Part shown: one piece after another, positions 14,274-41,888 of the stretch
Layout of the letters: every line of letters starts with the position of its first letter
Position numbering within the stretch: position 1 is the first letter of the stretch
Translations under genes and position numbers: made by a program
Assembly (NCBI GenBank): GCA_963833575.1
Contig: CAWHXY010000007.1
Span: 256,001 to 320,000 of the forward strand
Direction: 5' to 3'
From: Candidatus Bathyarchaeota archaeon
GTDB taxonomy: Archaea > Thermoproteota > Bathyarchaeia > Bathyarchaeales > Bathycorpusculaceae
Length of the DNA: 64,000 nucleotides
Notes under the pieces: generated by a model
Databases searched by the model: none
What the model was told of the DNA's origin: nothing
What the model saw: the letters and a program-made list of their open reading frames with translations, nothing else

Positions 14274-15602
14274 ATGATTGTGGAAGAAAATGTGAATCGC
14301 ATTAGGTCTAAGGCTTTTCTTAAAATGAGAGTTGGCACAAAAACAATTCTTGATGACTGGAAAGATTACCGATGGCAACTGAAAAATTCAATAAAAACCA
14401 TTGAAGCATTTGAAGAAGCTACAGAAATTAGATTTTCTGATGAAGAATATGGGAAGCTTGAAAAAACAATTCAAAAATTCCCTCTCAGTATTACTCCTTA
14501 CTATGCATCTTTAATAGAAAAAGAGAATTATCGTAACGATCCTATCTTCAAGCAAGCATTTCCTGACCCGGCTGAGTTAATAATTTCAAAATGCGACATG
14601 AGAGATCCACTGCATGAAGACAAAGACAGGCCAACAAAAGGCATTACCCACAGATATCCCGATCGAGTACTCTTTTTAGTAAGCAACTGTTGTGCAATGT
14701 ATTGCAGGCATTGTACAAGAAAAAGAAAGGTAGGCGACCCAGACTACATTCCATCAAGAGAGCAAATATTAGCTGGGATTTGCTATATAAGAAAAAATCC
14801 GCAAATCCGTGATGTCTTGCTTTCCGGCGGCGACCCCCTTATGCTGCCTGATGAATATCTAGATTGGATTCTTACAGAACTAAATAGAATTAAACATGTC
14901 GAGGTCATACGTATTGGTTCAAGAATACCAGTCGTTCTCCCATTCAGGATAACCAAAGAACTTACTAACTTACTAAAAAAGCATCATCCACTTTGGCTAA
15001 ATACACAGTTTAACCATCCAAGAGAATTGACTCCAGATTCACAAGAAGCTCTAAAACGGTTAGCCGATGCAGGGATACCACTGGGAAATCAAACGGTCTT
15101 GTTGGCAGGTGTAAACGATTGTCCGCAAATCATGAAGAAACTGAATCAAAAACTCGTTAAGAACAGGGTCCGCCCTTATTACCTGTTCCAATGCGACCTC
15201 TCTGAAGGGCTTTCTCATTTTCGAACTTCGATTGGAAAGGGCGTTGAAATTATGGAAAGCCTTGTAGGGCATACTAGCGGTTTCGCAGTGCCAAGATATG
15301 TTGTAGATGCACCTGGAGGGGGAGGAAAAATTCCTGTTATGCCAAATTACATTATCTCTTGGTCAACAAATAAGGTGATTTTGCGAAACTATGAGGGCGT
15401 TATCACTACGTATGAGGAACCTGAAAATTACAAAGCCACTTCATGTAACAACAACTGTGATAAATGTACGCCCAAATCAAATTTCATGAATACCGATCCT
15501 CCGACTGGAGTTGAAAAATTACTATCCGATGAGGACAGAACAATCTCACTTGTACCAGATGGGAACCTCCGCCTGAAAAGAAGGGAAAAAAGCGAATCAT
15601 AA
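14274..15602 (+). CDS. ablA: Lysine 2,3-aminomutase (radical SAM, AblA/KamA type)
   Basis: [21 protein letters not shown] (CxxxCxxC), [10 protein letters not shown] (PLP lysine), LRNYEG, C-terminal CxxxCxxC. Confidence 0.92.
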
Positions 15603-15607
15603 GAGGT

Positions 15608-16294
15608 ATGCGAATGACTGAAACCAAAGAAAATCTCCCGTTTAAGATCCGAAACTTGGAACTACAAGACATTAAAGAAGTATACAAGTTGCTTACTGCA
15701 AATAGACCCTATGTAGGATTAAATTCCCGATACACATATTTTATTTTAGCTAAAGACTTCGCAGATACCTGCGTTGTCGCCGAACACGAAGGCAAAATTG
15801 TAGCGTTTTCTTCAGGATACATCTCACCCAATAAGAAAGACACTTTTTTCAGTTGGGAAGCAGTTGTTCACGAGGATTTTAGAGGAAATAATCTGCAAAA
15901 ACTAATGTTACTCCATCAAATTGCAGGTAAACGAGTTAAGTATTTTGAAGGAACAATTAACCCTTCAAATGAGGCATCGAAAAAAAGTTTTCGTGGGTTA
16001 GCGCAGTTACTGAAAACGAAATGTGAAGAAAACATGCTTTTTAACGGGGATGATTTTGAAAATGACGGCCATGAACCAGAGATTTTGTTTAGAATCGGTC
16101 CCTTTTCAAAAGAGCAGGTAAATAAGACTATGCGATTTTCTGAAAGGAATCATGAACCCATTGAAAAATCGATGTTCATGCAGTTGGATGACAATGCTTC
16201 CAATTTAGAATACACGAAATCAAATCAAACATATAACATAACATCGAAGCTAAAGATGAGTCATGTTTCGGGTAATATGGAACTGACTTGTTAG
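15608..16294 (+). CDS. EctA-like GNAT diamino-acid N-acetyltransferase
   Basis: LNSRYTYFILAKDFADTCVVAE, GTINPSNEASKKSF and HEPEILFRIGPF follow the EctA pattern (LNSxYxY..F.xTCxVAE..TIxxxNxAS..HxxExLxRIGP). Confidence 0.8.
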   Translation: MRMTETKENLPFKIRNLELQDIKEVYKLLTANRPYVGLNSRYTYFILAKDFADTCVVAEHEGKIVAFSSGYISPNKKDTFFSWEAVVHEDFRGNNLQKLMLLHQIAGKRVKYFEGTINPSNEASKKSFRGLAQLLKTKCEENMLFNGDDFENDGHEPEILFRIGPFSKEQVNKTMRFSERNHEPIEKSMFMQLDDNASNLEYTKSNQTYNITSKLKMSHVSGNMELTC

Positions 16295-16340
16295 ATTCTT
16301 AACCCTTATTGGTAAGAACCGATAAAGTTGAATTATTCAA

Positions 16341-16476
16341 AGAAGAACACACCTTGAAAGAAGAAGTAGGACACGGTGCACCCTGCGATTGTCCTACTTC
16401 TTCTAACTTGTAAAAGAAGAAGTGCGCACCTAGCAAGTTTCTCCTTCTTTCATTGGTTAGGAGTTCCTGGTGAGCT
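16341..16476. repeat. Hairpin-repeat array, locus A
   Basis: 15-bp perfect IR AGAAGAAGTAGGACA/TGTCCTACTTCTTCT (16359-16404); second IR at 16413-16450; homologous to 40701-40865. Confidence 0.85.
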
Positions 16477-16624
16477 TTCGAGAGTTGAGGCGGGCTTAAG
16501 ATTTTGTCGACTAAATTGCTTTGGACACTGAGGGGATTTAAAGAAATGACCTTTTAGTCTTCTCTGGGACGATGTAAGTTTAAATTTCTCAACGCTTGAA
16601 TATGATAAATGGTGTATTTGCCAA

Positions 16625-17440
16625 GTGTCCTACGTCTTCAACATACCATACCGAAATAACGCTAAACTCAAACAAGTAATGGAACGAATCAAGGAAGACA
16701 AAAAATTGCAAACATACTGGAAATGCGCCAACGTCATGGCAATAGAGCGTATGGGCTACACCGACCATGGACCAACGCACGTAAAAATAGTATCCAACAT
16801 TGCTCTAAGACTTCTGCGCATTCTCATCGAAAAAAAACTCATAACACCCAGCATAGTGGAAAATTACAAAATGCAAAACGATGATGCTGAGGTAGTTGTC
16901 GTCTTAAGCTCAATCTTTCATGATTTAGGCATGATTGTGCAAAGGCACAGGCATGAACAATATAGTGTAATCCTAGCATTGGAATTTCTTGAAAAATGTT
17001 TGACACCAACCTACAATGAGGAGCAACAGGCAATAATAACTTCAGAGGTCTTGCATGCTATTGTGTCCCACGAAGAAACTCCCAGAAATGAGCCAACCCA
17101 TAAAATATTAACAAAAGAAGCAGGCATAGTGGGAATCGCCGATGCCTTGGACATGGAAGCTGGAAGAGCACGAATACCATTCCAAGCAGGCAAAATAGAC
17201 ATACACGCAGTATCAGCGCTCTCCATTGAAAAAGTTGAAGTGGAATGTGCTGAAAACACTAAAAATGGAGAAAAACCAATCAACATCAAAATTAAAATGT
17301 CTAACTCCGCAGGTGTATTCCAAATTGATGAGCTACTGAAACCAAGAATCGTCAACTCAGGGCTTGAACAATTCTTCCATGTAATCGCTGAAATCACAGG
17401 CGAAAAAGAAAACAGGATTATTGAAAAATTCGAGATTTAA
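16625..17440 (+). CDS. HD-domain phosphohydrolase (archaeal)
   Basis: YTDHGPTHVKIV, IFHDLGM, IADALDMEAGRARIPF, DIHAVSALSI. Confidence 0.87.
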   Translation: MSYVFNIPYRNNAKLKQVMERIKEDKKLQTYWKCANVMAIERMGYTDHGPTHVKIVSNIALRLLRILIEKKLITPSIVENYKMQNDDAEVVVVLSSIFHDLGMIVQRHRHEQYSVILALEFLEKCLTPTYNEEQQAIITSEVLHAIVSHEETPRNEPTHKILTKEAGIVGIADALDMEAGRARIPFQAGKIDIHAVSALSIEKVEVECAENTKNGEKPINIKIKMSNSAGVFQIDELLKPRIVNSGLEQFFHVIAEITGEKENRIIEKFEI

Positions 17441-40637: not shown

Positions 40638-40700
40638 AATAGAAATATAAATTGAGAGATTAAAAATTACCGAAAGAAGCGTGAATCGTTTGCTTAAATG

Positions 40701-40865
40701 AGAACAACAACAGTTGGTGGGTGCACCGGGTGTTGTTCTTCTCTTGAAAGAAGAAGGAGGACAATCGCAGGGTGCACCGCGTCCTTCTTCTACCCGAGCG
40801 TAACCTAAGAAGATAAACTTCGTATGGGCGCACTTCTTCTACCTGTTAGGAGTATCTTATGAGCT
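40701..40865. repeat. Hairpin-repeat array, locus B (three units)
   Basis: AGAACAACA..TGTTGTTCT; AGAAGAAGGAGGAC..GTCCTTCTTCT; AAGAAG..CTTCTT; cores GGTGCACC, GGTGCACC, GCGCAC. Confidence 0.85.
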
Positions 40866-40961
40866 ACAGCGTATCATTGCGATAAATGTAAATTTTAAAG
40901 GGCCAATATCGAGAGTAGTTAGTTTTAAGTTTCACGGCGTAAACTTCATTTTGGTTATTTT

Positions 40962-41888
40962 ATGACGTCTCAAGAAGTTCTGATTGAAGCGCAGGGTTTA
41001 ACAAAGAAATTTGATGATTTCACTGCAGTAGATCATATAGACTTTAAAGTTTACAAGGGTGAATGTGTAGGTTTCTTGGGACCTAACGGTGCAGGCAAAA
41101 CTACAACGGTTCGGATGATGTATTGTTTTTTGCCGCCAACCTCTGGAGAATTAAAGCTTGCAGGCTTGAGTGTTAACAAGGATTGCAGAGAAATAAAGAA
41201 TCTTGTTGGTGTAGCGCCTCAAGAGGACAATTTAGATCCAGATTTCACTGTTATAAAAAACCTCACTGTTTATTGCCGTTATTTTGGTATCCCAAAAGAT
41301 GAAGCTCTTAAACGGGCGAATGAGCAGCTGAAGTTTTTTCAACTTGAGGAAAAAAGAGATGTGTCTATAGCTGCCTTGTCGGGAGGCTTGAAGCGTCGTT
41401 TGATTTTTGCAAGGGCTCTAATAAATCAGCCTCAAATTCTTCTTTTAGATGAGCCAACAACAGGTTTAGATCCGCAGGCTCGCCATTTGGCTTGGGATGA
41501 AGTGCGGAACTTGAAGAAAAAGCAAGTTACGATAATTTTAACCACACACTACATGGATGAAGCTGCAGTCCTATGCGACCGCATACTCATAGTTGATAAA
41601 GGCAAAATCATTGAGGAAGGCAGCCCCGCTGAACTGGTGAAGAAGCATGTTGGCGAAGAGGTTTTGGAAGTTGATTATGACGAGAAATTGCTGCCCAGTT
41701 TAAAAGAGGCGTTTTCAGATGCACGTTTTGAGCATTTAGGTGACCGACTGCAAATCTTCACCGACAAACCTCATGGGGTTTTTGAAGGCTTCCTAAAAGA
41801 GCACCCCATGCAAAATGTAACCATACGTACAGCTAATCTTGAGGATGTTTTCCTTAAACTAACAGGAAGGGGCTTGAGAGAAGAATGA
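40962..41888 (+). CDS. ABC-2 exporter ATP-binding protein (NodI-like)
   Basis: GPNGAGKTT, PQEDNLDPDFTV, LSGGLKRRL, DEPTTGLDPQARH. Confidence 0.9.
   Translation: MTSQEVLIEAQGLTKKFDDFTAVDHIDFKVYKGECVGFLGPNGAGKTTTVRMMYCFLPPTSGELKLAGLSVNKDCREIKNLVGVAPQEDNLDPDFTVIKNLTVYCRYFGIPKDEALKRANEQLKFFQLEEKRDVSIAALSGGLKRRLIFARALINQPQILLLDEPTTGLDPQARHLAWDEVRNLKKKQVTIILTTHYMDEAAVLCDRILIVDKGKIIEEGSPAELVKKHVGEEVLEVDYDEKLLPSLKEAFSDARFEHLGDRLQIFTDKPHGVFEGFLKEHPMQNVTIRTANLEDVFLKLTGRGLREE

Follow-up and report, generated by a model that had tools for sequence, protein, structure and literature searches.

In the Hin/Gin, Fim and shufflon systems, segments of hundreds to thousands of bp are inverted between inverted repeats in a recombinase-dependent manner. 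Hairpin loops between short inverted repeats of plastid non-coding DNA have undergone recurrent, homoplasious inversions that differ between close relatives, and in the flip/flop termini of parvoviruses the interior of a hairpin occurs in two reverse-complementary orientations between unchanged arms, as a product of hairpin-primed replication of linear genome ends. Pneumococcal BOX elements are modular, intergenic, non-coding repeats that form stable stem-loops and are polymorphic for presence or absence. When templates are switched between short inverted repeats, the arms are described as becoming homogenised and the spacer as becoming inverted (PMC8604942). Loop-only inversions in rRNA and microRNA hairpins, which in rRNA are mostly of 4 nt and reach 7–8 nt, have been ascribed to template-switch mutations, and the same report names a compensatory change together with a loop inversion as the signature of template switching (PMC8794818). 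REPs are characterised as sequences of 20–40 bp, usually with >100 copies per genome (PMC2817692, PMC3733652), which are marked by GTAG or CGTC tags and linked to a RAYT gene (PMC2817692, PMC3116915, PMC3733652).

The two loci described here, A and B, belong to a dispersed repeat that is non-coding and non-autonomous and is best read as a MITE/REP-like mobile repeat. Its host is an uncultured archaeal genus, probably within the Bathyarchaeia. As in template-switch inversion, the spacers of some of the hairpins in the repeat are reverse-complemented whilst the arms are kept or, perhaps, homogenised, but the repeat differs from the reported template-switch cases in having loops of 14–23 nt, multiple copies, about a dozen flips in three genomes and, probably, exchange between copies. 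The plastid inversions concern single-copy loci, whereas the archaeal ones occur in a dispersed repeat of a cellular chromosome and, unlike the parvovirus termini, at internal chromosomal sites.

The stretch of DNA that was analysed (the window, 64,000 nt) corresponds to G000:C7:256001–320000, G000 being the source genome (2.75 Mb, 41% GC, 8 contigs). Locus B (40698–40881, plus strand; HMM match C7:296698–296881) is a complete element in which all three loops are forward, with H0 at 40701–40743 (arms AGAACAACAACA / TGTTGTTCTTCT, GGTGCACC in the loop), H1 at 40749–40791 and H2 at 40807–40840, all on the plus strand. Locus A, also on the plus strand, is an inserted element at 16303–16556 made up of an upstream remnant, a truncated H0, H1, H2 and a tail. 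The truncated H0 (AAAGAAGAACACACC, 16339–16353) has its loop and right arm deleted, and GAAGAACACACC at this locus can be read as resembling the left end of an inverted H0. The H1 hairpin (16359–16404) has arms at 16359–16373 and 16390–16404 that form a 15-bp stem, 100% complementary, around a 16-nt loop (16374–16389). This loop is the reverse complement of the family consensus and of the loop of the orthologous locus L089 (13/16), and matches the reverse complement of the locus B loop exactly (16/16). H2 (16412–16450) has its left arm at 16412–16422, an inverted loop at 16423–16440 and its right arm at 16441–16450, and is followed by the tail module (..GGTTAGGAGTTCCTGGTGAGCTTTCGAGAGTTGAGG..CTTAAG.., 16451–16556) in forward orientation. 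The pattern AGAAGAAG-N(10–40)-CTTCTTCT occurs twice in the window, against 0 occurrences in each of 100 dinucleotide shuffles.

An earlier note on this DNA had compared the two loci string by string, and all of the strings it quoted were found where it had placed them. The reverse complement of A 16373–16390 (ACGGTGCACCCTGCGATT) matches B 40763–40780 at 17/18 positions, the unit-2 strings are as described in both loci, and the linker CTTGAAAGAAGAAG and the tail have the same orientation in A and B and are co-linear. A single detail needed correction, in that the tail spacer from GTTAGGAGT to TGAGCT is 6 nt at both loci rather than the 7 nt claimed.

A profile HMM built from an alignment of 13 forward copies and run on the G000 genome gave 26 matches at 19 loci, of which 16 are composite copies, one (C7:244k) is degenerate and two are solo hairpins (H1 at C4:993.7k and H2 at C4:593.6k), and BLAST queries of A and B matched the same genome at 26 places. 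With further copies in the related genomes G040 and G009, the proposal of a dispersed family of intergenic hairpin units is borne out. A full copy is about 270 nt long and consists of an upstream module, three hairpins in the fixed order H0-H1-H2 and a tail, and this order, the linkers, the upstream module and the tail are kept across the 16 composite copies. The upstream module of about 40 nt continues, in some of the copies, into a conserved stretch, GCGA..GATTTATCAAAA..CTTTTGRATTT. The arms of H0 (GAACAACAAC) are followed by a TTG linker, those of H1 (GAAGGAGGAC) by a linker of about 10 nt, and those of H2 (AAGAAGAAG) by the tail of about 80–100 nt. The stems are near-perfect palindromes in which (GAA)n/(AAC)n-type purine tracts face pyrimidine tracts, and when folded the element forms three strong hairpins (−65 kcal/mol, z = −3.5). 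A perfect inverted repeat of 15 nt, TGAAAGAAGAAGAAC/GTTCTTCTTCTTTCA (L059), encloses the three hairpins, and is simply an H0 left arm paired with an H2 right arm. G000 holds about 50 hairpins of 35–46 nt in all.

Several other identities were considered for parts of the element. The upstream module, which holds a putative TATA-like GATTTATCAAAA, was rejected as a general promoter motif, since neither it nor the other modules recur elsewhere in the G000 genome, and it is thus part of the element. The tail was likewise rejected as a ribosome-binding site with a small ORF, the start varying (ATG, GTG, TTG, ATT) and the stops being unconserved. The tail consensus (e.g., window 16465–16490; L010 ~470–500) has CTGATGAG and then a small stem, CTTTCAAG..TTGAAG, a combination reminiscent of a hammerhead core; CTGATGAG varies between copies, is without an Rfam match and was rejected as hammerhead-like. 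At C7:244186–244306 in G000 and at L042/L043 in G009, H0 and H1 are fused into one hairpin (GAACAAC..GCGCACAGCAC..GTCCT), a fusion that is recurrent at different loci in two genomes and that looks like a deletion between AGCAC(C/T)G-type motifs common to both loops.

The earlier note had named a match to a known non-coding RNA as an observation that would speak against it. The window gave 0 matches to Rfam 15 at the gathering threshold and no tRNA, and the four element loci searched at E<=1 gave chance-level matches (23–27 bits vs gathering scores of 50–100). The single match above gathering score at those four loci is a tRNA downstream of the C4:744k element, with the tRNA model matching 119 nt at 47.7 bits (L006 652–770; C4:744701–744819) about 160 nt downstream of that element and co-oriented with it; it is presumably an intron-containing archaeal tRNA. 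An exact IUPAC scan for H1 across 185,579 species genomes, from which the organism's own genome was perhaps omitted, returned one unrelated match, in an actinobacterial MAG. The literature searched held no description of the repeat family and Rfam no match, so that, as far as these show, the family is new, whereas the mutational process is a known one.

The orientation of individual hairpins was assessed by per-hairpin segmentation of 41 elements of G000, G009 and G040, which gave 104 hairpins. The interiors of 80 were forward, 10 were inverted with respect to linkers and tail, and 14 were unclear; two of the unclear hairpins look inverted by eye (C4:600k H2 and G009 L037 H2), and most of the others are spurious pairings across linkers. 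Inverted interiors are found in G000 at locus A (H1, H2), C8:141k (H1) and C4:600k (H0, H1, H2), in G009 at L036 (H2), L037 (H2) and L038 (H0), and in G040 at L083 (H0) and L086 (H0, H2). The G000 inversions were confirmed independently by opposite-strand HMM matches of single hairpins, as at locus A, where the skeleton matches on the plus strand and H1 (C7:272353–272405) and H2 (272409–272452) give separate minus-strand matches, a split-strand pattern that was also seen at C8:141k (H1 only) and C4:600k (H0, H1 and H2). Segmentation and split-strand matches alike agree with the earlier note that the interiors of single units are inverted whilst unit order, linkers and tail are unmoved. As only the interiors flip, inversion of whole loci is rejected as the source of the flips, as the note had argued.

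The hairpins have stems of 8–16 paired bases and spacers of 14–23 nt between the arms. Stems are longer in inverted hairpins, with a mean of 13.3 vs 11.8 paired bases (one-sided Mann–Whitney p = 0.009, n = 11 vs 81, the copies being non-independent). In inverted H0 copies the asymmetry of the inner arms is swapped, with CAACAC|CC on the left and GTTGTTG on the right, which places the breakpoints within the stem, in its outer, perfectly palindromic part. The flips are clustered, in A (H1, H2 and probably H0), C4:600k (all three) and G040 L086 (H0 and H2), and this clustering counts against independent rare events at a rate of about one in ten hairpins. The conserved loop motifs, AGCACCG among them, occur mostly in one orientation; this one-sidedness may reflect selection on orientation, in which case flips would perhaps be non-neutral.

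Comparison of orthologous loci, which the earlier note had proposed as a check, establishes from the assembled genomes that orientation differs at the same locus between relatives and that the flips happen in place. Locus A and L089 align at about 90% in the flanks, in the upstream module, along both arms of H1 and over H2 and the tail, and the HD protein next to L089 is 96% identical, yet the 16-nt H1 loop has 0 identical columns, its reverse complement matching at 13/16. The H1 stem is a perfect 15 bp in A, whereas in L089 its seventh pair is a T.C mismatch. Both loci have an inverted H2, and H0, truncated in A, is intact and forward in L089. Contigs from Logan, which represent relatives at 88–99% likeness with a word share of about 0.1 and include no source-strain contigs, add two observations on this locus: in a contig of run X3, 78 nt replace window 16313–16353, and a contig of run X2, with a loose end at 16390, runs into the HD gene with H1 of locus A forward.

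Orientation also differs between C6:224k and G009 L036 (H2), between C4:492k and both G040 L083 and G009 L038 (H0), between C8:141k and L082 (H1), and between L080 and L037 (H2). Seven orthologous loci are alike, namely C7:618k/L069, C4:465k/L071, C4:744k/L078, C4:1070k/L079/L016, C7:207k/L081, C5:102k/L027 and B/L033, the last being the G009 ortholog of locus B in the same orientation. An assembly artefact was rejected as the source of these differences, as the flipped state recurs in independent assemblies and the stems are shorter than typical assembly k-mers.

At C4:600k (600300–600490), the upstream module, hairpin order, linkers and tail lie on the minus strand and the three loops are forward on the plus strand. 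In its G009 ortholog, L041, H1, H2 and the tail are forward on the gene's strand, so that the skeleton of C4:600k is on the opposite strand to that of L041, with the loops keeping the strand of the upstream radical-SAM gene. This state needs four nested events or another process, and no single known event explains it. Several of the archaeal repeats share arm sequence, and nested inversions are therefore conceivable, as in invertible switches.

Many copies were found in two genomes of the same genus, G040 (at least 13 loci) and G009 (at least 11), with a few each in G013 and G041 and weak partial matches only elsewhere in the genus. In one search, 11 of 31 genomes matched at E<=0.01, and in another, in which 8 candidates per genome were scored, matches to the element region were present in 5 of 41 genomes. 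Several sites are occupied in one relative and empty in another. The site of locus A is empty in G009, where on contig C13 about 9 nt separate the ablB stop from the sequence upstream of the HD gene, and likewise in the metagenome locus L090, with the element present in L089. Among 80 metagenome loci that neighbour the HD gene, 72 of them with at least 200 nt upstream, only L089 carries a family element upstream of that gene, L103 and L142 having other hairpins; those of L103 sit between ablB and the HD gene, as locus A does. At C4:150k, the flanking genes are 0–13 nt apart in G040, G013 and G033, and in G041 there is the same short gap by coordinates, against a 485-nt insert with the element in G000. 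Conversely, the G000 sites that correspond to G040 copies L077 and L080 are empty, and those of L073 and L086 hold unrelated sequence.

Such presence/absence polymorphism between relatives points to a mobile element. No target-site duplication was found at two filled/empty pairs (A vs G009; C4:150k vs G040, G013 and G033), and there are no terminal inverted repeats at the true insert ends of A and C4:150k. In its modularity and stem-loops the repeat is like the BOX-like MITEs, but it differs from them in lacking both of these features at the two pairs.

The likeness to REPs, BIMEs and REPINs lies in intergenic palindromic hairpins, composite arrays and the occurrence of interiors in both orientations, 80 of the 90 classifiable ones being forward, and the term "REP-like" used in the earlier note can stand as an analogy. 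The defining features of the REP/RAYT system are not present, however. The repeat occupies 19 loci, is a three-hairpin composite of about 270 nt, has no intact Y1 gene and no GTAG or CGTC tag, and G000 lacks the intact Y1_Tnp gene near the copies that a REP/RAYT system requires. Furthermore, its interiors flip inside a fixed skeleton, and the arms, order and linkers do not alternate. An alternative is that each hairpin is a mobile unit of its own, inserting either way round like single REPs in a BIME, so that mixed orientations would reflect separate insertions. A solo H1 and a solo H2 do exist, and other species of the genus combine similar hairpins differently, in arrays with similar purine/pyrimidine stems and unrelated loops (L020 and L029 in G007, L030 in G010, L031 in G001, and L103 and L142 from metagenomes), the stems being (GAA)n, GAACAACAAC, GAAGAAGAAAAAA or GAAGTAGTAGTC. 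REPs within BIMEs are also described as alternating in orientation (PMC2817692). Assembly of the element from independently inserting hairpins is nevertheless highly improbable, as order, linkers, upstream module and tail are constant in the 16 composite copies, orthologous loci differ in the hairpin interior only with both arms and the flanks aligning, and no intact RAYT-like gene was found in G000.

Locus A is surrounded by genes for a lysine 2,3-aminomutase (AblA), an acetyltransferase, an HD-domain protein and fumarate-reductase-like subunits. Window 14274–16294 holds an ablA-ablB-like pair, in which the aminomutase (TIGR03820, 734 bits) is followed by an acetyltransferase that scores as EctA-like; this pair suggests synthesis of an osmolyte of the N-acetyl-beta-lysine type. 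The element of locus A comes directly after the pair. In a protein atlas, the cluster nearest to the HD protein is 95% archaeal and most commonly from Candidatus Bathyarchaeota. Locus B lies 82 nt upstream of an ABC-transporter ATPase gene (40962–41888), co-oriented with it, and has a family-B DNA polymerase gene beside it, and our reading of one translation places a pelota-like protein downstream of another copy. Copies in general tend to sit 80–150 nt upstream of diverse, unrelated genes, and 7 of the 9 in tandem gene contexts are co-oriented with the downstream gene, a weak trend based on crude ORF calls. A contig from an RNA library (run X17) spans 16502–17300 and continues upstream into a diverged tail; it is no demonstration that the element is transcribed.

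The earlier note had offered a site-specific recombinase, an HUH enzyme or replication template switching as the cause of flipping. The genome search gave no linked candidate for a dedicated flipping enzyme. The sole Y1/HUH (PF01797) gene in G000 is a frameshifted IS200-type tnpA (C7:653945–654303; L052 1343–1803), split into two frames with a TGA and leaving ORFs of 64 and 94 aa in overlapping frames, and no hairpin copies lie near it. Inspection of 3.3 kb at this broken gene revealed no tnpB-like ORF. No serine recombinase was found in G000, the genome being 94% complete, and none of the five tyrosine-recombinase matches (C6:133k, C1:0.8k, C2:0.8k, C7:19k and C4:4k) adjoins a copy. Three of the latter lie within about 5 kb of contig starts (C1:827–1237, C2:778–1311 and C4:4201–4719) and may represent a repeated integrated element that breaks the assembly.

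A programmed micro-inverton, in which a recombinase or HUH/Y1 enzyme would recognise the stems and flip the loops as a regulatory switch, is accordingly difficult to sustain, although it would accommodate flips that are recurrent and bounded exactly by stems, their clustering in A, C4:600k and G040 L086, and the conserved loop motifs. The only Y1 gene is broken and unlinked, serine recombinases were not found and tyrosine recombinases are not beside copies. The spacers of 14–23 bp, with no recombinase linked to them, are far below the lengths of segments that known recombinases, such as those of the Hin/Gin-type switches, invert. One orientation is common to 80 of the 90 classifiable hairpins and most positional orthologs agree, which points to rare mutational events rather than an active switch. 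We regard such a switch as very unlikely.

Inversion of the loops by stem-mediated template switching, possibly with gene conversion between copies, is the explanation we favour, with moderate confidence, and among the three mechanisms put forward in the earlier note template switching fits best. The element inserts into intergenic DNA, the arms of each hairpin are short inverted repeats around a spacer of 14–23 nt, and the spacer is occasionally inverted, probably when a polymerase switches templates between arms that belong either to a single hairpin or to different copies. Spacer inversion of this kind requires no dedicated enzyme. Template switching is favoured by the lack of a linked enzyme, the short spacers, the stable orientation, the longer stems of inverted hairpins and the perfect stem at A, and in three ortholog comparisons the changed segment is the reverse complement of the spacer bounded by inverted-repeat arms, as template switching would leave it. 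We likewise infer that the flips are near-neutral.

There is also the question of whether the flips arose where they are now found or were imported, a loop being pasted in the opposite way round by gene conversion or a template switch when two copies were aligned through their palindromic stems in inverted register. Signs of concerted evolution would fit such import: in 13 positional-ortholog pairs, the best same-genome paralog beats the ortholog for 11 of 13 first members (with 2 ties), and 10 of 13 second members are closer to a paralog, although these identities come from short, low-complexity alignments. Loop motifs are typical of the species and not of the locus, being mostly CGCAGGGAGCACCG in G000 and mostly GCACACAGCACCGCG in G040, and the inverted H1 loop of A, once reverse-complemented, is identical to the B loop, a match that fits import from another copy equally well. 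The three differences from the reverse complement of the L089 loop are, however, compatible with the divergence of about 10% in the flanks, and import is for us the less probable course, one we would call unlikely. It too is stem-based and enzyme-free, and is thus a variant of template switching in the stems rather than its opposite. Exchange between copies is itself likely, judging by copies within a genome being more alike than positional orthologs, and such exchange may, via the palindromic stems, itself deliver reversed loops.

It is conceivable, if doubtful, that loop orientation matters, with the conserved motifs serving as strand-specific sites on a transcript or on single-stranded DNA and flipping acting as a slow, heritable toggle by which these sites would be lost or regained, either alone or in concert. 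If this were true, selection or some concerted process that acts on the folded hairpins would lie behind the three co-occurring flips at A and C4:600k, and behind the C4:600k skeleton that is inverted relative to L041 while its loops keep the strand of the gene. More broadly, the (GAA)n-stemmed arrays with species-specific loops that are found across the genus might conceivably form a natural setting in which hairpin modules are created, homogenised and reshuffled by template switching.

So far as Rfam and the literature searched show, the modular hairpin repeat of this uncultured archaeal genus had not been described before, and it constitutes a natural replicate set of dozens of near-identical hairpins at known orthologous positions in several genomes. 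With about one flip per ten hairpins at 9–14% DNA divergence, this set lets spacer inversion be counted against point substitution, and makes it possible to ask how stem length affects flipping in an archaeon, for which we know of no such data. Alignment-based divergence estimates and SNP calling over such hairpins misread one inversion as a cluster of substitutions.
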